DNA from: an uncultured archaeon | GTDB taxonomy: Archaea > Asgardarchaeota > Lokiarchaeia > Sigyniarchaeales > SOKP01 | Direction: 5' to 3' | DNA length: 64,000 nt | Assembly: GCA_964447495.1 (NCBI GenBank) | Contig: CAYUTF010000001.1 | Span: forward strand, 32,001-96,000 | Shown: positions 1,522-46,656 of the stretch, one piece after another | How the letters are laid out: every line of letters starts with the position of its first letter | How positions within the stretch are numbered: position 1 is the first letter of the stretch | Notes under the pieces: generated by a model | What the model saw: only the letters and a program-made list of their open reading frames with translations | Database searches by the model: none | Told to the model about the DNA's origin: nothing | Translations under genes and position numbers: made by a program

Positions 1522-4500
1522 TACATTAGGTTCTGATAGTAAAATTCAGAGATATCAAATTATTAATCTATTATTATCATTGAGTTTTATATTAACAAGT
1601 ATTATATTTGCGTATTTAATTGAATACCCCGTTATAATTCTTATAATTACTCCTATAATTCTTTTAATAACTTATTATGAACAAAAATCCGAAATTTGTC
1701 CTCGAAAATATAGCCGATATGTATATTTAGTTAGCATTTTAGTGATATTAGGGGTTATGAATTTTTGGATAATACCTCTCTTTTTTGTAACTTATCCAAT
1801 GAATATTCAAGTAATAGTATTTTCTATTGTCCTATACCTTTTATTGCAATACTTTATAAGATATGATTATTTTAGAAGAGAGAATGTAATTATCGCACAA
1901 CATCTCTTAGCTTTTCTTACATTTTTAACTTTTATTTATTCACTCTTTCCCATTCTTAGTTTTGAATTCTCCAGTATTTCAAATGAATCTATTGTTTTGA
2001 TTTTAAATATCTTAACTCATGTATTAATTAATCTTTGTGTATTATTAAGCTCATTTTATTACCTCTATATTCGCCAATTGCAAATAAAATCATCTCGATT
2101 TTTCAATATAAGCATAATGGCGATTTTTTTACTAATTGAGTTCGTTTCTTATGCTATAATAAATTTAATGAACTTTTTTCTTGTACCTTTCGATATATTT
2201 ATACAAACTTTTCTTTTAAGTGTAAATTTAATTCCAGTTATTTTCTTAGGTTATGTATTTTTGAACTATATTTTAGGAATCATTCCTGAAAAGCTAAGTA
2301 AAAAGTTGGCGTATATATTATTTTGGAATATTTTAATTATGATATGTTTTTCGATAATCGTTATTTTTTATTATTCCTTCCGAGTGATACTTATAACACT
2401 TTTATGTTTTTCAATCATTTCCCAATTCTTAGTTAAGTTTGGGTTTAATAATGCAATTATTTCAGAGAAAATCTTAACCTGGTATAGAAAATTAAGTTTT
2501 TATTTGATATATTTAGAAGTGTTTATTTTAGCATTCACTTCATTCTTTGAACTATTTCAAGTATTTGAGATACTCCAAAATCTATTCTTATCAACTTTCT
2601 TTTCTCTAGTAATCATCACTGTTTTACATAATGTCGTGTATAGCACTTTTCATATCTCAAAACTTTTAGCTTACATCCTAAATACTAGCTTATTATTTTT
2701 TACTAACTTCTTGGTGTTTTTTTATAGCGCTCTTTTAACTTTAAACACATTCTATATCTTTCTAATTCCTATTACTTTTTCAAGTATTTTTTTAAATATT
2801 CCATTATACTATTTAAAAACTGTTGTGAAAAAGAGGTTTTTAATCAAAAAATTAATTATTATTAATAGTTTTATTGTTTCAATTGCTTTTACAGCTATTC
2901 CTTCAGTTATCTCCTTAGAAATGATTAAATTAGGGTACCTTGTTGATATTGTGTCTACATTTAATTTTTCTATCTACATTCTTTACATAATATTGGGATG
3001 CATTTACATTTTTTCCAGGAGTCTCAATCTAAAGGAAAATAGCAAAACTGCAATTCTAAAATCTCAGGTTTTTATAGAAATCATAATTGCATTTACGACA
3101 GTTTTTTATTATCTGAATGTGCTCCTTAAAGATACATTATATGGCTTTATATTACCAATTTTAGCTACATCGGCCTTTTTATATATCCCCTTATTATTTT
3201 CTTACAAAAAGAACTATTTCCTAAACCTATCGATCCGAAGAATTATCATAGTTAATACTTTTATTTTTTGGATTTGCATTATTTCCACACCTTCTTTCAT
3301 AGCACTTGAATTAGCGATTTTAGGGTTCAATGTTGATTCAAATGTGATTATCTTAGTGAGTATAATACTATGGTTCATTTTTTTAAAATTCCTTGACATT
3401 ATCACACAGTTTTTAAAGATTAAAGAGAAGGGTATTGAATTCATAAAAATTTGTCAAATTTTTAGCTGGATTGCAATTTGCATTTTGGTTAGTAGGCAGG
3501 TTTTTCTATTCTTATTTGATATTTTTAGTGGTGATCTTCTTTGGGGAGTAAACATTTCTATTTCACTTATATCATTTTTACTGCTAAATATCCTTAATTT
3601 ATCGTTATTGGAAAGTTTAAAACAGATTACTTTTGAAAATAGAGAGAGCAAATATGATTATTATAAAATTTATAAAATTTATGAATATAATAAAAATCTC
3701 ATTTATTTTGGATTGATTTTTGCGATATCTCTGCTAATAAGTTTATTAACTCAACAGATTGGGTTATTATCGCTTATTTTTATAGATGAGACGATTCTTA
3801 TCCCCTTACTGGTTCAAATAGGTATATTTATGCTAATTTCTTTACTATTATTGCGCATCACTTCATCCTTTTTTGAAATAGAGTTTGTTAAAACCAAATT
3901 AATCTTAGAAGCAATATGTTGGTTTGTTTTAAAGATAATAATATGCCTGATTTTAATATTCATTCCTTTTAATATATCCTTCTTTAATCGATTTTTATTA
4001 GTCGTATTAGTGTTTTCAGTCTTAAGTCCGATAAGTTTGTATTTCTTAAGTGAACTCTTTGTCATTTTAGACTCATCAATAAGAAGAATGAAAAAAATCA
4101 TAATAATAATCTTCCTTATATCTGCTCTAATATTTTTCTCAGAACTGTATTGGTTAATATATTTTGATCTCCATCTTTTTGCTATTGATCAAACTCTTTT
4201 AATTTTAAATTATGCTTGTATAGTTTACCTATTTTTAAATTTCGTAATTACTTATTATCACAATATTTTTGAGGGAGAAGAAAGCTTAAAGATTTACAAG
4301 ATATTCGGACTAGATATCTTGCTCTCCACCTCATTGCTATTGATTAATTCTAGCTTCTTTATCTTTTTCTTACTTCTCCTCTATTCTATTATTTTATATA
4401 ATAGAAACCGAAATATTGTATTTCGCATAATGATATACTTGGTTCTTTCAATTTTTTGTTTAATTGAAGTATTGATTAATTTTAATTATTTTAATTTTTT

Positions 4501-7500: not shown

Positions 7501-9145
7501 CATTTTAAAGCGAATGAAAGTGAAATATATGCTTATTATCCAATTATTAAGCTATTTGGCCATTTCTTTACTCATCTTAGTTATTTTTAGTCAGATATAT
7601 ATTTTAAAAATCAATTTTGTTTTTCTGTCTATTGTTCTACTCACTTTAATGCAATTCTATACAAATTATTTGTATTTCAAGATTAGAAAGTTATCACATC
7701 CCGAGAAAGAGAATATATTTATCAAGTGGAAAAAATATAGACAGAATATCCTTGGAATATGTTTCTATATATTTTTAATCGTATACATATCCCAGAACTT
7801 ATTAAGCTTAAATCTAGAATTGCAGTTATTTTTGTTTATCATAAGTCTAATCACTCATTTACTCATAATTGGAGATAATTTCATATTCAAATTTATAGGA
7901 AAATATACTAATATAATTGTATTGATTACGTGGGCTCTAATTTTTGGTTTTTCATTCCTATACTTTCTTTCTTGGATTCCTCCTTTTTCTATTAGAGTAA
8001 TTCCAGTAATTATTTTGTTGTTATTATTAGAAATCTTATATTTATACAAGACCATTGAGTACTCCACAACGCTCAAATTTGATATTAGTAAGATTAAAAA
8101 AGTATTAATTTACCTATTTTATTTCAATTTTACTAGTTGGCCTCTTTACTATGCAACTCTCGAGGTGTTACAAACTTTAAATTTGATTCTTTTTTCTCTT
8201 GCAATTTTATTATTAATAGTTTTGATTGATAGGAGTATTGGAGCAATAAATAACACGATTAGGAAAAAATTAATAGATATATGTATTATGAGTATAGGTT
8301 TTGTTCTTTCAGTGAATATTTTTCTCTTTTTAGAATTTTATTTAATATCTAATTTCTTAGCAAATCTGTGTGTCGCCTTATTACCATTTATGCTTTTCTT
8401 AGGCTACCTATTAAAACCATTTAAGAGAAAGAAAATACTTTCATTTGCCTACTGGACATCATTATTCATATTATTAAGTATAATAACCTATAATTTAACT
8501 GCCTCAGGTTTTAGCTGGGGAATCCTCCTCTTTGGCGCAATACTTTATCCATTCATCTTCATGCTAGAAGAACTGAAATTGTTTCTTGAAAACATTGCTA
8601 CTTTTATAAAGATATCCTACTATAAAGTAAAAAATGCGATGATAACAATGTATTACAGTATTCTAAATTTCTTAATAAGAAATTTCAAATATGTAAAAGT
8701 AGTAATTTGTTTTGGGTTTGGAATTAGCATAGGAATACTCTTTTCTGATATAATATTAGGATTATTAAATCCCCTACACTCATTTTTATTAACTTTTGCT
8801 GTGTTTGGTATTTTATATGGATTAATTCCAGGTAAAAAAACTGAAGATCTAGATGAGATTTTTGAGCAAAAAATGAAAAGGTTCATAATAATTTGGATAA
8901 GCACCTCTTTATTCATTTATATATTGATATTACCCTATATTGAATCATTTATTTATTCATTAATTCTTATGACGTCATCAATATTGGGATTAGGGGCGAT
9001 TTTATTGATATTTATATATAGAAAAGAAAAGAAGAAAAAAATATCAATTAAGTGGCGTTTTTATACTACAATTGTTTCGATTTCATTAGTGATTTTTTGG
9101 GTTATATTAATTCTTATTTGGTATTTCACCGAAGTTCGAATTTAG
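1499..9145 (+). CDS. Giant polytopic membrane protein (2548 aa), function unknown
   Basis: 7.6 kb uninterrupted ORF made almost entirely of hydrophobic helices with short Lys-rich loops; alternative ATG at 1508 follows AGGAGTGA. Confidence 0.85.
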   Translation: MSSMQKNDTLGSDSKIQRYQIINLLLSLSFILTSIIFAYLIEYPVIILIITPIILLITYYEQKSEICPRKYSRYVYLVSILVILGVMNFWIIPLFFVTYPMNIQVIVFSIVLYLLLQYFIRYDYFRRENVIIAQHLLAFLTFLTFIYSLFPILSFEFSSISNESIVLILNILTHVLINLCVLLSSFYYLYIRQLQIKSSRFFNISIMAIFLLIEFVSYAIINLMNFFLVPFDIFIQTFLLSVNLIPVIFLGYVFLNYILGIIPEKLSKKLAYILFWNILIMICFSIIVIFYYSFRVILITLLCFSIISQFLVKFGFNNAIISEKILTWYRKLSFYLIYLEVFILAFTSFFELFQVFEILQNLFLSTFFSLVIITVLHNVVYSTFHISKLLAYILNTSLLFFTNFLVFFYSALLTLNTFYIFLIPITFSSIFLNIPLYYLKTVVKKRFLIKKLIIINSFIVSIAFTAIPSVISLEMIKLGYLVDIVSTFNFSIYILYIILGCIYIFSRSLNLKENSKTAILKSQVFIEIIIAFTTVFYYLNVLLKDTLYGFILPILATSAFLYIPLLFSYKKNYFLNLSIRRIIIVNTFIFWICIISTPSFIALELAILGFNVDSNVIILVSIILWFIFLKFLDIITQFLKIKEKGIEFIKICQIFSWIAICILVSRQVFLFLFDIFSGDLLWGVNISISLISFLLLNILNLSLLESLKQITFENRESKYDYYKIYKIYEYNKNLIYFGLIFAISLLISLLTQQIGLLSLIFIDETILIPLLVQIGIFMLISLLLLRITSSFFEIEFVKTKLILEAICWFVLKIIICLILIFIPFNISFFNRFLLVVLVFSVLSPISLYFLSELFVILDSSIRRMKKIIIIIFLISALIFFSELYWLIYFDLHLFAIDQTLLILNYACIVYLFLNFVITYYHNIFEGEESLKIYKIFGLDILLSTSLLLINSSFFIFFLLLLYSIILYNRNRNIVFRIMIYLVLSIFCLIEVLINFNYFNFLKAYILNDIGFFILIALISIISVLLFSVIINAKRENFIENHLLYILFSLLSYFTLLTFTLLPQIYSLSILILVYLLFIGVSLYRRESENYKWYIGPCILIFIFDFIFFSSDVFLFTGTLFYKYKAILGISLTLSITGLLFILIYNSASKNLRKYSFIVVLGMILGTLPTFIYFLLISLFALPILDPIALIVAINVFIFLFYLSIGIYQGKISWQIWRTGWWLWIICPIANFYIIYESFAGVDLFTKSLSFFGLFTINGSFILSIMICIVISLPFWYSWIKKHFSETLLIVWGLSLFALYWLSQNIFADNIFFTNFLFILFAIFLLIPIFFWMKVWKLLSLLWTIFSITMVVFLFILFSELGFIFEINFSLNIMIGGTFFIIASFFPTFQAQKSVILILSYSMVIIGIFLTVYNINYLLFLNFPISLAISLIIIGMSLFSSKLFKLNQSIFNFLISIVLIFGFSLLSYITFSLIPNFELFSVFLTITVAGISFFAFNHYKMLLGIKKIIPISILSIGLSLTLSNLVLILFSDAFFLSGSVFIAINLIFLYYLLYEKRFIMLYLFPLPFTIFFLEFIRLIEIFQPLAIFILIGLMLYTTFFQLILNILNPNNQKVKEEDLKGLKKFFKNQNQVKVLNFLSLVLNSTYFSLFIAFISQLSILYKIIEFFIIWSILILISFKYYKKWGLDKEFVVISSKILKFGSLIALFLYFEISILMLGLLMEFFLLDIQTSVIISLTFYFLLNTLDIYVIKKGYKNVMHILNIIVYTFLSIYTYIFLNQFTIINSDLALLFIIILLLMQFYTNYATFNFLKGFNKYDNTKLDNLKGYIKNIILNLIYITISLYSATLIVSFFQVSFLGIYAISLFSLYIMIFSLLMYFFNYIIKSKFKPILTSSLFIVFQLSLGLFWVSFSIYLNLLNLFNISLILIAETTLSFYSTKLLGMLFKEKIRENIVAQIYSIITIIIYFELSFLVYSISNLILGIYESLLASQISIFLISFLEIDILKRMKVKYMLIIQLLSYLAISLLILVIFSQIYILKINFVFLSIVLLTLMQFYTNYLYFKIRKLSHPEKENIFIKWKKYRQNILGICFYIFLIVYISQNLLSLNLELQLFLFIISLITHLLIIGDNFIFKFIGKYTNIIVLITWALIFGFSFLYFLSWIPPFSIRVIPVIILLLLLEILYLYKTIEYSTTLKFDISKIKKVLIYLFYFNFTSWPLYYATLEVLQTLNLILFSLAILLLIVLIDRSIGAINNTIRKKLIDICIMSIGFVLSVNIFLFLEFYLISNFLANLCVALLPFMLFLGYLLKPFKRKKILSFAYWTSLFILLSIITYNLTASGFSWGILLFGAILYPFIFMLEELKLFLENIATFIKISYYKVKNAMITMYYSILNFLIRNFKYVKVVICFGFGISIGILFSDIILGLLNPLHSFLLTFAVFGILYGLIPGKKTEDLDEIFEQKMKRFIIIWISTSLFIYILILPYIESFIYSLILMTSSILGLGAILLIFIYRKEKKKKISIKWRFYTTIVSISLVIFWVILILIWYFTEVRI

Positions 9146-9556
9146 AGTATTGAAATTAACTCACATTCAAAAAATTAATGGATTACAAAATGCAAGAAAT
9201 TAACAATAAGAAGTATAAACTTAGTTAAAATTTGAAAAGTTTTTACTTTTCCATTTATTAAGATATTCCTTAAATTCAATCTCATCAAGTCCAATTGAAT
9301 TCATTTTCCTTGTAGTTTTGTGATTTGACGAGGTTTTTTTGAATCCTAAGGACCAATCATAATACGAGTTTGCTTTTGAGGACATAATAATAAAATACAA
9401 ACAAGTAAAAATAAACACCTACAGACTGGAAATTTTCTGATATTCCAAAAGTGGTCTAAATTGTTTTTCCATACTATACAAAAGTGAGAATTCTTAAAAT
9501 TTATAAGTCTAGAACAAAATTTTTAGTGCATAATAAAAAATTCAAATTGAGTTTTT

Positions 9557-38874: not shown

Positions 38875-40107
38875 TTATTTTTTGATTATTTTTGAAAAAT
38901 CCGTAATGGTAAAAATAATAATGCATAGGAGTAATAAGATCGATACATAAATGAACGCCACTGTGTAAGAGAAAGAGTTATAGATAAAACCAAATATTAG
39001 AGATTCACCGAGTGAGATTAACCCCACCGAAAAATAATAATATCCATAAGCCCTTCCCCTTTTATTTTTTCCGACAAGGTCAGCAATATAGGCTCTTGAA
39101 ATAGGATCAACGGAGGCCATATAAAATCCAAACATTATCCATATTATTATAATTAAGATTAATGAAAAGAGGGTAATTTCAACGGGAACTGCCAGTATGA
39201 TCGATAATACTAATAATATGGACAAACCCGTTATTATCACTGGTTTTCTCCCTATTTTATCCGATAAAGAACCCATGAATGGTGAGAGAGCCATATAAAC
39301 AATATTTGAAATCAAATATAGAACTGGTATGAAGAAATCTGCGAATAAGTAATCGATGGACCTGAGTTGTAAAAAGGAAATATTAATGGATGCAAATTCG
39401 ATTACACCAAGGATGATTATTAACTTTATAAAGTTCTTATCAATTCGATCAACTCTCGTTGACGTAGTCTGAAATTTCATTATCTCCTTCAATTTTGCTG
39501 AATCCACGTCCTTTACAAAAAGGATCAAAATAATGGCACAGATACCGGGTATTATTGTGAACAAGATGATTTGCTGATATGTCCATGCAAAATATAATAA
39601 AATAAATGCCATAATTGCTCCAAGAACTGCCCCTAAAGTATCCATGGCTCGATGAATACCAAATGATTTTCCCTTCTCAATAGCATAGTAGGAAATAAGC
39701 GTATCTCTCGCAGAAGTTCGAAGTCCTTTGCCAGCTCTATCTATAGCTTTCAATCCCAATACCATTTCCCAAGAAGGACTGAAAGCCATTAATGGTTTTG
39801 AAAGATTAGAAACTGTATAACCAGCTACTACAAACGGTTTTCTTCTATTAATTTTATCGCTCATCCATCCCGATAATCCTTTTAGAATGTTTGAAATGGC
39901 TTCAGTTATTCCCGAAATGATCCCGATTACAAATGCCGTTCCTCCTATCGAAATTATAAATAAGGGGAAAAAACTTTGAATTGATTCACTTGAGATGTCA
40001 GTAAATAGTGAAACTAACCCCATTATGAATATAGGCAATGCTACTCCGAATATTGTTCTTTTACTATTACTTCCTTCTTTAGGTTCACTCATAAGTCCTT
40101 GAATCAA
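38875..40107 (-). CDS. MFS transporter
   Basis: SDKINRRK and SDKIGRK motif A, DRAGKGLRTSARD, about 12 TM segments. Confidence 0.9.
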   Translation of the reverse strand: MIQGLMSEPKEGSNSKRTIFGVALPIFIMGLVSLFTDISSESIQSFFPLFIISIGGTAFVIGIISGITEAISNILKGLSGWMSDKINRRKPFVVAGYTVSNLSKPLMAFSPSWEMVLGLKAIDRAGKGLRTSARDTLISYYAIEKGKSFGIHRAMDTLGAVLGAIMAFILLYFAWTYQQIILFTIIPGICAIILILFVKDVDSAKLKEIMKFQTTSTRVDRIDKNFIKLIIILGVIEFASINISFLQLRSIDYLFADFFIPVLYLISNIVYMALSPFMGSLSDKIGRKPVIITGLSILLVLSIILAVPVEITLFSLILIIIIWIMFGFYMASVDPISRAYIADLVGKNKRGRAYGYYYFSVGLISLGESLIFGFIYNSFSYTVAFIYVSILLLLCIIIFTITDFSKIIKK

Positions 40108-40141: not shown

Positions 40142-41863
40142 TTATATATTGAGTAATGGTTTTAAAACTGTACTAATTCCTAACACGTTAGAAACTACTG
40201 CGGCAAAAAATAATTGTATTATATTAAAGGAGCTTAAAATAGTAAGACTAAAGCTCTTCGTATTTTCATATATTAGGGTATTTTGAATAATTACAACTGA
40301 AAAAATCGCATACAAAAATATTACTGATGGAAAAAACAACCATGAAGAGGTTAGTGAAATCAGAAATATTTGAATGAAAATTGAGATGGCTATAATCCAC
40401 AAAGACTTCTTTCTTTCAGTTTTTAAGAAAGTGAGCTGGGGATATAGTATTTTTCTGTAAAAAATTTCGATTGAAAAATATATGGGAAATGCGAGTTCAG
40501 CAACAAGAATCTGTATAAAATTTGAGGGCCACATAAAAGCAAATGGATATGAGAAAGAAAAGAGTATATAAATTCCAATGAAATAAAAGCTCGCAAAAAG
40601 AGCAAAAATAACATGCTTTAAGCGAAATTGAAATTTCAATAAAGTTTTAAATTGAAGCCACCCAAATTTAACCTTATCGAGCTTTAGTTTGTTATAGTAA
40701 TTTATCATTTTAATTAAAAGATAGATTATAGTAATATTTAACGAAGCATAAAAGATACCAATTAATCCAAAGATTCTTTCAAATATTTCCCAGTTAAGTA
40801 GAAACATACCCGTATAGATTACTATTTTGGCTATTTTATATGATTCATGGATTCGGGGGTGTTTTGGATTGTTCTCAGTTGGTGCAGTATCTTGGTCCTC
40901 ATCTTTATAGGTAAAAAATTGAGCCATGTATGAAGTGAGTAATAACACTATCAAAAAGAGTAAAGCCATACAAACTAACAATACAACATAATTGATTATA
41001 AACGTAATATATATTGGACCGTTAATTATTTCTGAGTGGAAAAAATAATTTTCAAACCATTCAATAGATTCAATTAAGACAACATCAGAAAAAAGTTGAT
41101 GCCCACCACCTAATAAAGGCGTTGTTATAGGAATAACAGTACAATTAGTCAATTCTTGGGCCTTAATAGCATTTTCAGTAAAATTTAGCATCTCATCTTC
41201 AACATGCATTATGATTAATAGATTATGAGTATTAGTTTCATTTATTAAATTAACTGGAATATAATCCTCATAATATTCATTCTGAATAATACCTAATTGC
41301 TGAGGTTTGAAATTTACTAATGGTGCCCAAGCAACTGTTATGTTGAATCGAGGATCGAGTGCTTGATTCATGAGCACTACCATCCCTCCCATTGAATGAC
41401 CGATGAGACCGATCTGAGAGAGATTTACATTCAAATAGAATGAATATGTTTCTAAAGTATCTAATAAATCTGAACAGGCTTGTGCTATTGCGGGTCTTTT
41501 TGTTACTGGATTAATATCAATTACATTACCACCACTCTCACCATGCCCTTGATAATCAAGTGATGCTACATAAAATCCCCTTTTTGTAAATTCAATGGGA
41601 ATTCTTAAATCAAAATCTCTCTGACTTCCTATTCCATGACAATAAATCAATAAGGGTCGTTTATCTTGAAAATCTAATGATTTTGTGGGATAATATAAAT
41701 TTGCATACAGAAAAGATCCAGAGGATTCAAATTGTATTCGTTCATATCGACTATAACTTTGTAATTTGTTGACATGGAGATAAGTAAGTGAGATAGCTAA
41801 AAAAATGATGAGAATGATAATTCTTTTAAAAAATTTTATGTCTGTAGTGGTTAATTTATCCAT
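40142..41863 (-). CDS. Membrane-anchored alpha/beta hydrolase with C-terminal TM domain
   Basis: HGIGS, DYQGHGES, nucleophile GHSMGG, GGH; hydrophobic C-terminal half. Confidence 0.85.
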   Translation of the reverse strand: MDKLTTTDIKFFKRIIILIIFLAISLTYLHVNKLQSYSRYERIQFESSGSFLYANLYYPTKSLDFQDKRPLLIYCHGIGSQRDFDLRIPIEFTKRGFYVASLDYQGHGESGGNVIDINPVTKRPAIAQACSDLLDTLETYSFYLNVNLSQIGLIGHSMGGMVVLMNQALDPRFNITVAWAPLVNFKPQQLGIIQNEYYEDYIPVNLINETNTHNLLIIMHVEDEMLNFTENAIKAQELTNCTVIPITTPLLGGGHQLFSDVVLIESIEWFENYFFHSEIINGPIYITFIINYVVLLVCMALLFLIVLLLTSYMAQFFTYKDEDQDTAPTENNPKHPRIHESYKIAKIVIYTGMFLLNWEIFERIFGLIGIFYASLNITIIYLLIKMINYYNKLKLDKVKFGWLQFKTLLKFQFRLKHVIFALFASFYFIGIYILFSFSYPFAFMWPSNFIQILVAELAFPIYFSIEIFYRKILYPQLTFLKTERKKSLWIIAISIFIQIFLISLTSSWLFFPSVIFLYAIFSVVIIQNTLIYENTKSFSLTILSSFNIIQLFFAAVVSNVLGISTVLKPLLNI

Positions 41864-42058
41864 AATATTATGATTGCTTGTTATTATAGTGATTATAGTA
41901 TTATCCTTTTATATTTAAAATTGTTTCGGGAAAATACAATATATAATATTCTTTTTCGATATTCAGAGGTTAAATTAATTATTATAGAATCAAACCTTAT
42001 ATGGAGACTTTGCGTTAAATTTATATCAATTCATTGAAATTATATATTGTGAATTCTA

Positions 42059-42742
42059 ATGTCAGATAAAAATACTTTAAATGTGATTGATGGGACTTTA
42101 AGGTCAGTAGAAAAAAACTTCAAAGAATTTATCGAAGTTTTAGAGTCTGCTAAGAATGAATTAATAGCATTGGAAAATGATAAAGGGCAATTGAGTCATG
42201 ACAAAGAATTACTTGAATACGAGAAGGGACAACTTCAAGAAGCAACGAAAATGTTAGAGAAGGAAAAAGACAAACTTGAAAGAGATAAAGAATTATTAGA
42301 AACGGAAAAATTAAAACTAGAGAAAGAAAAAGAGGAAAAAGAGCAAAAAATTGGCACTATGACTGAAGAACAGACACGATTGCTAAAAGAATATGAAAAA
42401 GTTAAGGTGGAATTATCAAAATTTGCAAAATTAGCAGAAGAAGCTGAATCACAGGAACTAAATTTTGACAAGATACAAGCATTACTTTCAATTTTTCGGG
42501 TACTTGTAGAGAAGATTTGGCAAGGTCAGCCTCACTATAAGGTTTTAAAAGTCCTTCATGGTGCAAAGGAAGTTATGACAAGAGAAGAATTGAAAAATAC
42601 CACAGGTATTGGTGGAGCTTATATTTTAAGAGCTGTGCAAGAACTAGCAAATGTTAATTTAGTAGAACATGATATTGATACTGGAACTGTCACTTTGAGG
42701 CAACGATTATATGCGAAGGAAGTATTGGATGATAATATGTAA
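42059..42742 (+). CDS. Coiled-coil protein with C-terminal winged helix; apparent target gene of the adjacent element
   Basis: Heptad repeats LENDKGQ/LSHDKEL/LEYEKGQ/LERDKEL; C-terminal MTREELKNTTGIGGAYILRAVQELAN HTH. Confidence 0.85.
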   Translation: MSDKNTLNVIDGTLRSVEKNFKEFIEVLESAKNELIALENDKGQLSHDKELLEYEKGQLQEATKMLEKEKDKLERDKELLETEKLKLEKEKEEKEQKIGTMTEEQTRLLKEYEKVKVELSKFAKLAEEAESQELNFDKIQALLSIFRVLVEKIWQGQPHYKVLKVLHGAKEVMTREELKNTTGIGGAYILRAVQELANVNLVEHDIDTGTVTLRQRLYAKEVLDDNM

Positions 42743-45028
42743 TTAATAATTTATTAAATATTCACCATCAACAAATCTTATTTGTTTAGCTCTTATTAAT
42801 TCTTCTACAAACTCGAGTAATGTAAATTCTAATGTCTTATGATCACTTTCTGAATATAAGATAAGTAAATTTTCTATTCTATTATCAGATGGATCAAAAT
42901 TTTTATGATGAATTATGATATCTGAAATTAAAAATCCATTTTTATCAAGACATTTTTTGGTTAACTCCGAACTCTTTTGAGATTTTAAAAATTCTTCTAT
43001 AAGATACTGATGCTCTAATATCCACCCATTGTTTCTTATGGCTGTTGGATTTGAATAATTTTTTGGTTTAATAAATATACGTCCTTTCTTGTTTATATAA
43101 CGCTTAAATCCCCATTCCCTACCTCTTGAAACTTCTAAGCGTCTACGCCATGCTCTAGCCTTATCTTTTGTGATTCTACACAATTCTCCAAGCCGAGAAT
43201 CACTTAAATTAAATCTTTTATCGTTAACTAAACGGTTTAACCATCCTCTATGCTTGTACAAAGGATTTTTTTTTGAACAATCTGAATAAGGATCTAAATG
43301 TATATCTATGAATGGTGAAAATTGGTTTTGCCTGTATTTAACTATCCAATTTGAATAAAGTTTTTCCCAATTAATTTTTTTTATTTCTTCTTTAACATTA
43401 TTGATATCCTCATAAAAAATCTCTCCTCTAGGCTTTAGGATCTCTTCAATTTTTTTATTGCCTATATGAGATATATTAAAATCCTTTCTTAGAACATATT
43501 TAGCATTTTTAAACATAATTTTGGATAGTTTTATGAGGTCACTAAAACATTTATATAAGCTCTCAAGAGATTTATAGTGCTCTTTTTGACTTTCAAAAAG
43601 CCATAAGTTTTCTATTCTATTATCTAATTTATTAAAGTTTATATGATGAACTATACAGTCAGTTTTTAGATATTTTCCATCAATCATGCAATTTTTAGAG
43701 ATTTCCAATTGGGGATTTTTTGAAAGATATTCTTCCATTATTACTTGATGTTTTCTCCGTATAAACCTTCCTTCTCCACGATTAAGAGGGGTAATTTCGG
43801 GATGAAAATACTGCTTGGGAGTATAAACGCAAAGGTACCCATGTTTATCAAGCCATTCTTTCCCTGTATCCTCCCGTTTAGGTAGTTTATGCTTTTTTGC
43901 CCAATATATTATTGTCCCTTTATCTACGTTACATATTTTTGCTATTTGTCTATAGCTTAATTCCTGATCTTCATAAAGGAATCTTAACCATTCGCTATGC
44001 CTATATAATGGATTTTGATCCTTAGAGCATTCTTTCTTTGGATTTAATAACAATCTAGTAATTGGTTCAGAAGATCTCGCTTGATATTCAATTATCCAAT
44101 CCGAGGAAATCCTTTCCCATTGAATATTCCTAAGACTTTCTTTTATCTTAATAAATTCTGAATCTTTATCATCAACAAGTTGATTTAAATCTTTAAAGTT
44201 TAAATTTTGACAAATTCCCGCATCTAAGAATTCACGATAAGCTGAAAAAAGCTCAAAAGCAGAAACCTTAATTGAAATTTCTGCTGGAGAATTGCCTACT
44301 AATAGTAGGCAAGTCTTTGCTTGAAGGAATTTGTCATATTCTTTCTTTTTTGCTATAATAGATGCTTTATCTTCATCATTTTCAGTAGGGTTATTGTTTT
44401 TAATATTTAGCCTTATAGATTTTAAAAACTCTTCCAACCAATGTTTAATTAAATCTTTATCTTTTTGAGTAAAAGGTTTTACTTCTTCTATATTGTAAAA
44501 GTTTTCGGAAATATCATATAACTTCTTTAAAAACTCAATATATTCCATTTCAATTTTTTTAAAACCAAGTATGATCAACTTATCTCTCTTTTTTAAGGAC
44601 GTATCAGTACTGATTAATTTTTATTGCTTTTTTGTGAGAGATTTAATATAAGCTCTAGATAAAGAATCTAAATACTTGTGAACCATATCAGCCCCTCTCC
44701 CTATCGGAGAACAGTATAACCACTTGTGGAACAGGGATGTATATATCCCAGAACTCGATTCTTTAATCAAATTTAGCAGATCTATTGGAGGTAAAACTGA
44801 AACATCAAATAAACAAGCCTTTACCGATTGAAGGAAATCACCAATAAATTCATCAACAAAAACTAAGTGAATTTTATGTTCTATACATTTAGGATATTTT
44901 CGGATACCGAATAACCCAAATTTCAATGGTTTTAACTTTACTACGGTGAGACATCCATATTCTGGACAAACTGCCACTCTATCTCCCTTTAATCCTTTTC
45001 GTGTTGCTTGAATAGCCTTATCTATCAT
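42743..45028 (-). pseudogene. Putative Zn-binding N-domain + tandem (HTH-HNH)x2 endonuclease, about 761 codons, broken by one in-frame TAA at 44621-23 (track ORFs 44621-45028 and 42743-44578)
   Basis: Both ORFs share a frame and the 14 codons between them are open (KKQ*KLISTDTSLKKRDKLIILGF); HNH motifs VHHINFNKLDNRIENL and IHHKNFDPSDNRIENL; N-terminal CPEYGC...C..H. Confidence 0.75.
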
Positions 45029-45633
45029 TTTCTAACTATCACCTTACTCTTCTTAAGATGAATCTGTTCTTTGTCTATACCAAGGCATAATCTTGCATAT
45101 TCTTGGTCTAATTGTTGATAATTCAACTTAATTTGCTTTATAAAACCTGGTATAACCTCATTTATTTTTTCTTCATCTTGATATAAACGAGTTAATGTAT
45201 TAAGTACTAATTTTAATAATTGAGGCCTCTCGTGAATTTCTAAACCAGAAAGTATATGCAATATCTGCCACAATCTAATTTTATTTCTTAAGAAATCGTT
45301 GAATAGTTTAGCTTCTAAACAGCTTGGGGATGATTTCGCCTTTTCTGCAATTAATATAATTTTTAATTTAATATCTTCATTTTGTCCAATAGTATTTTTT
45401 AAATATTTAGAATATTCCTGGATTCGTAAATTCAGTTCCACTTCCCATTTATGAATTGAATTTATAGAAGAGAGATTTGGAGTTTCATTATAATCACTGC
45501 ATATTGCACGAATCGTTGCCTTTCTATTATTTAAATAGGTTTGCAAGTGACGAGAAAGCTCAGTTATCCTATTCTGAGTAATTTCAAGAATTTTATCAAA
45601 ATAATTGGGTTCTTCCTCATAAAATTGTTCCAT
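45025..45633 (-). CDS. Hypothetical helical protein (202 aa), first gene of the HNH cassette
   Basis: ATG-started ORF overlapping the next gene by 4 nt (ATGA), suggesting translational coupling. Confidence 0.7.
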   Translation of the reverse strand: MEQFYEEEPNYFDKILEITQNRITELSRHLQTYLNNRKATIRAICSDYNETPNLSSINSIHKWEVELNLRIQEYSKYLKNTIGQNEDIKLKIILIAEKAKSSPSCLEAKLFNDFLRNKIRLWQILHILSGLEIHERPQLLKLVLNTLTRLYQDEEKINEVIPGFIKQIKLNYQQLDQEYARLCLGIDKEQIHLKKSKVIVRK

Positions 45634-45747
45634 TTTAAATCATCTTGAAAATATTTAATTTAACTTTTTATTCTTAAATATTCATTTAGCTACTTATTTA
45701 TAAATAAAAAATACTTTAATCGTACAGAAAAATACTACAAAAATGCC

Positions 45748-45942
45748 TTGCATGGTGATAAAGAAGAGATGACTCGCGATCAAATTAAAAATACGACTGG
45801 AATATCTGGAGCAATGGTTTTAAGAGCTGTTCACGAATTGGTCAAGATTGATGTATTAGAATATGACGAAGAGCGATCTCTTGTTAAGCTGAAAAAGAGA
45901 TTATTCGATAAAAAAGCATTAGAGAAAAAAGATAAAGAATAA
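45748..45942 (+). pseudogene. Orphan 3' fragment homologous to the C-terminal wHTH of 42059-42742
   Basis: LHGDKEEMTRDQIKNTTGISGAMVLRAVHEL vs LHGAKEVMTREELKNTTGIGGAYILRAVQEL; 30/58 identical, ungapped; no homology upstream of LHG. Confidence 0.8.
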
Positions 45943-45997
45943 ATTATTTTACCTTATTTAGTATAAATTGTATTTATTGCTTTAATATTACTAATTC

Positions 45998-46390
45998 ATG
46001 CAATGTTTTTCCTTTTTCTTTATATGTAACTCCATTATCCTCAATAACAATTTCGAAACTGGAGAGGAACTCTATAATATTTGGAAAGCATTGCCATTTA
46101 GTCCCAAAGAGACAATGAGTTGGTTTATTCCAATGTTCATGGAAGCGTTAGGAGGGATTTATGACTGGTCACAACCACATGCGAAACGAGTTCGTCAGAT
46201 TGCTGCATCTATAAAATCTTATATGCCAAAAGCTTTACCATTTATTATGACGTTCGTGTTTCCTCTTATCGCCAAAATTTTTGAGTATGATATTGATAAA
46301 ATAATGGATCCTCAGAAGTTAATGTCAGCAATACCTAAAATTATAGATTTACTCCCTAAAAAGAAAATAGTAAAGAAGAATGATTTATGA
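45998..46390 (+). pseudogene. Probable C-terminal remnant of a FixC-like flavoprotein gene
   Basis: Overlaps (ATGA) a FixX-like ferredoxin; no FAD-binding motif; first ~15 residues look non-coding; family assignment is from context. Confidence 0.4.
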
Positions 46391-46656
46391 ATATTAGAAT
46401 TGATGAGTTGATAAAACATATTCCAGGAACTGGTGATTTTATTTCAATTGATAATAATAAATGTAATAATTGTGGTAAATGTATTCTTGTTTGCCTGGTA
46501 AACTTATGGTATAGAGAAGATAATATGATTTTTATTTCTAAAGATTATAAAGATAAATGCTTAGAATGTGCTGCTTGCTATCAAGTTTGTGTTGCTGGTG
46601 CCATACATTTCCAGTATCCTGCCGGGGGTACAGGGATCATTTATAATAAAGGTTAA
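46387..46656 (+). CDS. FixX-like 2x[4Fe-4S] ferredoxin
   Basis: CNNCGKCILVC and CLECAACYQVC...FQYPAGGTGI.Y..G. Confidence 0.8.
   Translation: MNIRIDELIKHIPGTGDFISIDNNKCNNCGKCILVCLVNLWYREDNMIFISKDYKDKCLECAACYQVCVAGAIHFQYPAGGTGIIYNKG

Follow-up and report, generated by a model that had tools for sequence, protein, structure and literature searches.

Nuclease cassettes flanked by duplicated gene ends in Promethearchaeota: probable homing elements that replace the 3' ends of chromosomal genes

A nuclease cassette between two versions of one gene end

We analyzed a 64,000-nucleotide (nt) stretch of DNA, here called the window, from an uncultured archaeon of the Lokiarchaeia (contig CAYUTF010000001.1, positions 32,001 to 96,000), and focused on a nuclease cassette that lies between two versions of the 3' end of a single gene. 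The window belongs to a 180-kb archaeal chromosome contig. The host gene, called as an open reading frame (ORF) at 42059-42742 on the plus strand, encodes 227 amino acids (aa), a coiled coil followed by a C-terminal winged helix-turn-helix (wHTH). A copy of its 3' end, which we call the orphan, stands at 45748-45942 on the same strand. BLASTP aligned host residues 166-223 to the orphan without gaps (29 of 58 positions identical, 44 of 58 positive, E = 2e-19), which confirms, one identity short, the duplication that a first-pass annotation had reported at 30 of 58. The duplicated part is the last 58 host codons; homology begins at the L-H-G codons at 42554, where the 7-nt run CATGGTG is identical in both copies. 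As the annotation had stated, the orphan is an intact frame, with 64 open codons and TTG as its sole in-frame start. Upstream of it, the frame is interrupted by two stops and does not resemble the host gene, and the DNA there is unrelated and AT-rich. A search of the whole genome from which the window comes (G000; other G codes designate related genomes) matched the host protein only at the host gene and the orphan. The two flanking copies, being about 50% diverged gene ends, are unlike a fresh target-site duplication.

The space between the copies had been described as holding only two antisense genes. We called three antisense ORFs there, of 611 aa (42743-44578), 135 aa (44621-45028) and 202 aa (45025-45633), and the first two proved to be one broken nuclease gene: they share a frame that is split by a single TAA at 44621-44623 on the minus strand. 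G008 and G002 have the orthologous nuclease gene without interruption, encoding 771 and 755 aa, respectively. Since the TAA interrupts the gene, we conclude that the nuclease copy in the window is probably decaying.

The C-terminal 611 residues of the nuclease comprise a helical N-domain, a helix-turn-helix (HTH) and two tandem HNH_3 domains, with Pfam matches to HNH_3 in two stretches (E = 2.5e-11) and weakly to HTH_17, and a PHROG match to an HNH endonuclease (E = 8e-19). This region also holds internal repeats with a spacing of 738-747 nt. The separated 135-aa N-terminus (44624-45028, minus strand) carries a C-C-C-H zinc ribbon and is the first part of a conserved region that we term the N-module; in the family alignment, C26, C48 and H51 are invariant and C21 is present in at least 90% of sequences. 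The third ORF encodes p20x, a partner protein that is all-helical in its AlphaFold2 (AF2) model. This agrees with the earlier description of a double-HNH nuclease beside a 202-aa helical protein. Neither the 135-aa nor the 202-aa protein matched a family in Pfam, PHROGs or NCBIfam. For the host protein, no Pfam family scored above the cut-off and nothing in the PDB or among curated families matched beyond coiled-coil noise; its neighbors in the Atlas were hypothetical proteins of Promethearchaeota and Thorarchaeota, with leads to MarR/TrmB-like wHTH proteins.

The ORF coordinates also bear out the reported 0-nt gap between the host stop (42740-42742) and the nuclease stop (42743-42745). Alignment of G000, G008 and G002 identified the right end of the element as an AT-rich non-coding segment with a TATA-like motif (45634-45747). 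About 3 kb lies between the copies, and the element spans from about 42351 or 42554, depending on whether the foreign gene segment described below is counted, to 45747. At 45743-45750 of the window, an ATG is one base out of frame with the orphan and the TTG is in frame. In G008 and in contig C44 of G000, the element end supplies an in-frame ATG right before the orphan (L051, about 3541-3549; L099, about 160-172).

The nuclease gene does not sit inside an intron or intein, being antisense and 3' of the host stop, and no tRNA, intron or intein was found at the locus. No Rfam family matched at E<=1 across 41800-46600. The first-pass annotation had seen no integrase, transposase or terminal repeat, and broader scans agreed: Pfam, PHROGs, NCBIfam and PADLOC yielded no tyrosine or serine recombinase, DDE, HUH or transposase domain, and no inverted repeats pairing the cassette ends were found. 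We rejected a defense system as an identity for the cassette, because PADLOC gave weak matches to generic HNH and HTH stretches only.

An arrangement of this kind could be produced by a chimeric assembly, and the annotation had named this as a possible refutation. The sequencing runs compared (X1-X4) come from salt-marsh samples. A contig from run X1, possibly the source sample, covers 42314-46137 with 0 differences. The left junction is bridged by run X4 (42627-42788) and the right junction by run X2 (45679-45860), both independent of X1, and an X2 contig (43569-45705) covers the nuclease TAA with 0 differences. Because both junctions are bridged in runs independent of the possible source sample, we rejected a chimeric assembly. 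One X4 contig matches the window to 45766, 19 nt into the orphan, and continues with unrelated letters; it may represent another junction variant or a mis-join.

The host gene in related genomes

The host gene was matched in 48 of 61 related genomes and in 28 of 36 within the genus, mostly as a single match. Tandem full-length paralogs, which the annotation had offered as the observation that would undo its reading, are thus not what most matching genomes carry. We examined the loci of 20 relatives with their flanks (21 loci with G000). By their last 60 residues the proteins form two classes: type A, which resembles the resident end of G000 and occurs in 11 genomes plus G000 itself, and type B, which resembles the orphan and occurs in nine. 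The orphan is 75-89% identical to all nine type-B ends and 47-59% identical to all type-A ends. To G033 it is 84% identical over 63 aa, versus 50% to the resident end of its own genome. It had been predicted that empty alleles would be closer to the orphan than to the resident end, and this is the case in nine of the 20 relatives (75-89% versus about 50-60%).

Separate trees of the N- and C-terminal parts disagree, again as predicted. In the C-terminal tree the A/B split has an SH-aLRT value of 99, the G000 orphan falls within B beside G033, and the G008 orphan groups with G028, G005 and G016. A tree of the middle part of the gene recovers the same split with an SH-aLRT value of 100. The N-terminal tree, in contrast, mixes the classes in three groups: G000 (A) and G032 (A) with G033 (B); G018 (A) with G009, G019 and G017 (B); and G026 and G020 (A) with G028, G005 and G016 (B).

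DNA identity along the locus showed where the switch occurs. G000 and G032 (A) are 71-76% identical up to 42350 and 86-91% identical beyond, and over that same 3' stretch the identity of G000 to G033 (B) drops to 58-67%. Between G020 (A) and G016 (B), identity is 89-96% across the upstream gene and the first two-thirds of the host gene and falls to 66-69% from the equivalent of 42441 onward. These abrupt switches upstream of LHG indicate that the resident end is foreign, and we conclude that the 3' 300-390 nt or so of the resident gene are a recombinant foreign segment with a sharp breakpoint. In the window, this cassette-type A segment is delimited by DNA identity and trees to 42351-42742 on the plus strand. 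The first-pass annotation placed the start of the exchange at LHG. The duplication does begin abruptly there; the foreign tract begins about 200 nt earlier, at about 42351. Its left edge precedes the duplicated part by about 100-200 nt and differs in position between lineages.

The cassette is present at the wHTH gene in three of the 21 loci (G000, G008 and G002), a presence/absence polymorphism. In G008 the host gene, nuclease, p20x and orphan follow in the same order as in G000. The G008 orphan is identical at 46 of 46 residues to the type-B end of G005 and G016, with seven synonymous and no non-synonymous differences, and these two genomes also share the upstream and N-terminal gene sequence with G008. 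In G002 the orphan beyond the cassette is reduced to a remnant of 17 codons, the end of which resembles the C-terminus of G002's N-terminal clade, and the resident 3' segment is 83-85% identical to those of G008, G026 and G020 versus 71-74% to those of its clade mates. Thus, at three independently occupied alleles the orphan is native to its own lineage, in line with the annotation's proposal that the native end was displaced and a foreign one installed. The right end of the element is homologous in all three genomes and stops just before the orphan. In G000 and G008 the orphan starts at the (T)LHG codons; in G002 it starts at a later one.

We rejected the explanation that the orphan is a decayed tandem paralog. 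Relatives are single-copy, and the sequence upstream of the orphan is shared with the elements of G008 and G002, which rules out that it is the decayed 5' part of a paralog. A contig from run X4 also carries the orphan's sequence in another setting: ahead of 45754 it has 217 letters unlike the window, the last 30 of which encode the type-B residues that precede LHG. We conclude that the contig carries a type-B allele without interruption, at least 95% like the orphan in its 3' part.

The cassette-linked ends of G000, G008 and G002 form one group with the ends of the cassette-less G032, G026 and G020 (77-94% DNA identity within the group, 69-76% to the native type-A clade). The cassette-type ends without a cassette fit either a later cassette loss or a cassette-free conversion. 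In G020 and G026, what follows the cassette-type end downstream is the native context seen in their type-B sisters.

Comparison of window positions 42743-46000 with loci L032-L050 showed that the DNA 3' of the wHTH gene is a hot spot of rearrangement. Depending on the species, it holds a 6-kb convergent operon, an ABC transporter or a pair of genes for a 130-aa protein and a ferredoxin, the last of which is the arrangement in the window (45998-46656). Elsewhere, a 39-residue fragment in G036 (C178, 15347-15463) is 82% identical to a type-A C-terminus; a full-length gene was not found in that genome with this query, and the genome is 99% complete.

The cassette family and its other host genes

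The window's cassette is one of seven pairs of p20x and nuclease genes in G000. The large protein is 750-920 aa long and starts with the zinc ribbon and the helical domain. Within the genus we counted 56 copies in 20 of 42 genomes, with 0-9 per genome. Across the class, 30 of 151 genomes carry one; strong matches occur in three families, and near-full-score matches appear sporadically in other families of the class. A profile built from the first 300 residues matched 104 clusters among 1.84 billion protein representatives, and the named homologs are from Promethearchaeota, to which the family is apparently restricted.

The C-terminal part of the large protein varies. In 47 full-length proteins it matched HNH_3 in nine, GIY-YIG in four, LAGLIDADG_3 in three and RNase_T in one, and the remaining proteins have HTH motifs only or nothing recognizable. 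By these domain matches, three classical homing-nuclease heads are carried on one conserved N-module. One family member also has an intein-splicing match.

The p20x gene is present directly upstream of the nuclease gene in 39 of 42 aligned family loci. AF2 modeled the N-module and p20x with pLDDT values of 84.7 and 83.6, and neither had a fold match in the PDB at E<=0.001, the best hits being unrelated helical bundles. When the two were predicted as a complex, the ipSAE was 0.82, compared with 0.01 for the best control. In a benchmark, 58 of 80 solved complexes and two of 110 mismatched pairs reached the mark for this score, a rough calibration since custom alignments were used. At least 79% of contacts agreed between prediction runs, and partner pLDDT was at least 76. 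The predicted interface takes in those p20x columns that are most conserved and straddles the TAA break in G000. These predictions support the idea that p20x binds the N-module.

If the cassette replaces gene ends, its homologs should also stand between duplicated ends of other genes, as the first-pass annotation proposed. We compared 1.5 kb of left flank with 1.5 kb of right flank (tblastx, E<=1e-3) for the 49 of 56 copies in which the nuclease ORF is uncut and each flank extends for 200 nt or more. Flank duplications were found at 12 of the 49 cassettes versus two of 147 shuffled left/right pairs, and one of those two shuffled positives is a true homolog (the G000 orphan against the G002 host gene). 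In 11 of the 12, neither copy is more than about 250 nt from the cassette borders. Extending the flanks to 5 kb added L085 and L078, and targeted queries with the C-terminal 50 residues encoded by the abutting gene added L090 and L080. The proposal therefore gained support beyond the window.

At least six host genes are hit by these duplications: the wHTH gene (G000, G008 and G002), a 476-aa sugar-isomerase-like gene (G000 contig C44, G004 and G007), an HD/HDIG phosphohydrolase gene (G028, G016 and G020), an ORF of about 210 aa (G028 and G016), a helicase-like gene of about 780 aa (G027 and G035) and a gene for a major facilitator superfamily (MFS) transporter (G028). All coding cases have the full-length gene upstream and the orphan downstream along the host strand, with the cassette in either orientation. 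Some orphans have decayed: those of L073 and L093 contain a stop, and others are remnants of 15-24 residues. All long orphans are open frames.

The HD gene offers a second case in which native and foreign ends can be told apart. In G028, G016 and G020, the orphans match the C-termini that the closest genomes (G005, G064 and G026) have in their unoccupied alleles, and the resident end matches none of those C-termini. Among the three occupied genomes, the orphans differ at a synonymous divergence (dS) of 0.13-0.19, with a ratio of non-synonymous to synonymous divergence (dN/dS) of 0.08-0.20, whereas the resident segments have a dS of 0. The nuclease gene is 97-100% identical and the flanks are about 88-98% identical. 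Because the resident segments and the nuclease are so alike compared with the more diverged orphans and flanks, these values suggest that the HD-gene element is younger than the species split. The cassettes here are co-directional with the host gene, and the nuclease stop is in frame with the orphan. In G030, a locus without the nuclease (L133; C252, 3500-7700) has at 2040-4001 an HD-hydrolase gene of 195 aa, an opposite-strand gene for a 235-aa membrane protein and a 148-aa orphan with its own ATG, which corresponds to the C-terminal two-thirds of the HD gene.

Several other loci of the family deserve mention. The isomerase orphan on C44 is an intact 178-residue end that runs on into contig C104. 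The starts of contigs C44 and C104 of G000 fall within the duplicated isomerase gene end and have 55 letters in common (L099 and L105), and the assembly break between them is probably due to the gene-end duplication. At L078 (G028, C72, 5000-20100; features at 2817-3029 and 8283-9542) the cassette abuts an ortholog of the MFS transporter that the window carries at 38875-40107, and the last 53 residues of the transporter are copied, at 85% identity, 2.4 kb past the other cassette border. At G000 C38 (11467-13803), L079 and L094, the nuclease ORF runs 14 nt into the 3' end of a convergent gene of about 773-779 aa that has a cysteine-rich C-terminus. At L090 and L097, a convergent gene of about 770-790 aa lies 3 and 28 nt from the nuclease ORF, and the C-terminus of the L097 neighbor reads differently. 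Loci with a convergent gene of about 770-790 aa have short orphan remnants (16-19 residues) or none. Finally, orthologous cassettes at L087 and L091 are flanked by a repeat of about 80 nt that is non-coding and has stops in every frame (L087, 5233-5313 and 9814-9894; L091, 5247-5321 and 9808-9882). It lies about 60-100 nt from one cassette border and 1.2 kb from the other, and a tRNA search of it was negative.

Proposed mechanism, alternatives and known systems

The comparisons largely bear out the reading of the first-pass annotation, and we think it probable that the cassette is a free-standing homing endonuclease element that replaces gene ends by break repair with co-conversion. The homing-type heads, the lack of a recombinase, the patchy occupancy, the variable left boundary, the fixed right end and the set start of the orphan all fit such a mechanism. 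The nuclease would cut an unoccupied allele at or near the T-L-H-G codons. The broken left end would then invade an occupied allele by way of the conserved sequence in the upstream part of the gene, and the foreign 3' end and the cassette would be copied together with an upstream co-conversion tract of variable length. The right end could be sealed on the donor's orphan or by end joining; sealing without homology is plausible, as the downstream neighborhood differs between genomes. The recipient's own 3' end, from the break point on, would persist as the orphan, or, once a composite exists, the orphan might instead serve as a right homology arm. The host gene would stay functional because it receives a complete, diverged end, which the nuclease presumably does not cut. 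We infer the cleavage, the cut position, the resistance of the installed end and the repair pathway from comparisons of sequences.

Several results weigh against this mechanism or complicate it. Protein identity among the three wHTH-gene cassettes is only 65-74%, so they are not recent transfers of one element, and older insertions are possible. The native allele of G002 was itself type A, which makes a scheme of resistant A and sensitive B ends too simple. Nine of the 12 type-A alleles have no cassette, and allele replacement must therefore also occur or persist cassette-free. In the uniform flank test, 37 of the 49 cassettes had no duplication. At the isomerase gene on C44 the resident C-terminal part groups with G025, as the N-terminal part does, and the orphan groups elsewhere, which is not the pattern of a native orphan beside a foreign resident end; the isomerase trees are themselves mosaic and do not indicate which copy is native. 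The N-module and p20x, with no recognizable fold, might do something other than aid a homing nuclease. The window copy itself may be inactive, since its TAA falls inside the predicted p20x interface.

The main rival is a recombinase that the conserved scaffold encodes but that has escaped recognition. P20x and the N-module would act as a novel site-specific integrase, and the element would carry an attachment site (attP) together with a gene end, with CATGGTG as the core. The order of gene, element-borne end, element and native end is indeed the architecture of integrase 3'-end replacement, and the resident and orphan ends share their 7-nt run where homology begins. A new activity is conceivable for two proteins of no known fold that are predicted to form a complex, and one homolog is labeled "transposase" by JGI. 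We nevertheless consider this explanation unlikely. The domain searches described above found no tyrosine or serine recombinase, DDE or HUH domain. The foreign left boundary lies about 100-200 nt upstream of the supposed core and varies by lineage, which is expected of homologous co-conversion, and the G002 orphan starts at another codon despite the same right end of the element. In addition, what varies within the family is the nuclease head, which argues that DNA cutting is the required activity.

Slightly less probable again is a single ancient insertion in the ancestor of the genus, followed by deletions between the duplicated ends and without ongoing mobility. Such a history would account for wHTH-gene cassettes as diverged as their host genes, for the many cassette-free type-A ends and for the cassette-type end of G020 and G026 in the native context of their type-B sisters. 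It does not explain the type-B middle region upstream of LHG, which is supported by the middle-part tree and could not be regenerated from an orphan that starts at LHG. Neither the absence of non-synonymous differences in the G008 orphan, against 7-10 synonymous ones, nor the open frames of the long orphans would be likely after long neutral decay. The resident dS of 0 in three genomes at the HD gene, versus 0.13-0.19 in the orphans, also speaks against it, as do the variable copy number per genome and the sporadic near-full-score matches in other families of the class.

We regard as the least probable, and very improbable, that the cassette is a bystander and that two old allele classes are swapped by homologous recombination in the manner of rhs genes, perhaps with a defense pair nearby: the variable region 3' of the gene, the G030 orphan that lies beyond a membrane-protein gene with no nuclease and the weak PADLOC matches to HNH and HTH parts of defense proteins would suit it, but gene-end duplications recur beside this family at no fewer than six unrelated genes against two of 147 shuffled pairs, the copies sit within about 250 nt of the cassette borders, and the defense-system models match generic stretches only. 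Homing accounts better than either the ancient-insertion or the bystander explanation for the breakpoints, the dS pattern and the recurrence at several genes.

The closest described system to a homing cassette of this kind is the mobile-ORF (mORF) element of fungal mitochondria. In Glomus atp6, atp9, cox2 and nad3 and in Allomyces macrogynus atp6, the gene core is reported to be followed by a foreign C-terminus, an endonuclease ORF and the displaced native C-terminus (PMC3630166). The native copy resembles that of a close relative and the inserted copy is divergent, which that source reads as horizontal transfer (PMC3630166). Here, likewise, a foreign C-terminus is joined in phase and the native one is kept beyond the nuclease. 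The differences are that the present element is on an archaeal chromosome rather than in an organelle and that its nuclease is antisense and of the HNH type, whereas those of mORFs lie on the gene strand, are often fused in phase and are LAGLIDADG or GIY-YIG enzymes. The two-gene unit of a zinc-ribbon/helical N-module and a partner is not known from mORFs. The archaeal elements also occur in many copies per genome and at many non-homologous genes.

In phage intronless homing, homology lies on both sides of the break and no orphan is left. The genes for free-standing HNH and GIY-YIG endonucleases of T4-like phages, such as mobE and the seg genes, lie between or next to other genes and spread by a double-strand break in a genome that lacks the nuclease, with repair that co-converts the DNA on its flanks (PMC2790892). 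In the archaeal case, by contrast, part of the recipient gene is kept as a displaced duplicate, the setting is a cellular chromosome and the proteins are unrelated outside the HNH motif. Integrase-borne elements in tRNA genes, and e14 in icd of Escherichia coli, bring a substitute 3' end and leave the native end on their far side. The cassettes differ from these in that no integrase was found, the left boundary is variable and the element is about 3 kb. In rhs and contact-dependent inhibition (CDI) toxin genes, an incoming C-terminal end replaces the old one and displaced tips gather downstream as orphans (PMC2935791). The genes affected here are ordinary conserved genes without immunity genes, and a nuclease cassette lies between the copies.

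The strategy is known; new are its occurrence in another domain of life and on chromosomes, the scaffold of two subunits on which nuclease heads have been swapped, and the large number of cellular genes targeted. Full-text literature searches found no description of such archaeal cassettes among the papers listed, which is not proof that they are unpublished. We put at even chances the broader claim that Promethearchaeota harbor a hitherto undescribed family of chromosomal homing elements, built from p20x and an N-module scaffold with interchangeable heads, that overwrite the 3' ends of cellular genes, drive allele replacement across species, create mosaic genes and leave behind intact and possibly expressed orphans.

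Homing endonucleases that supply a substitute gene end, so far a curiosity of fungal mitochondria, would then also be at work on the chromosomes of the archaea closest to eukaryotes. If so, nuclease-driven gene conversion across species boundaries would be a mechanism for the origin of mosaic Asgard genes. It would also explain why some contigs of these metagenome-assembled genomes break off and why some of their genes are annotated as partial. Furthermore, the family would offer a set of natural site-specific nucleases whose genomic targets are defined, because the start of each orphan marks the probable cut site.

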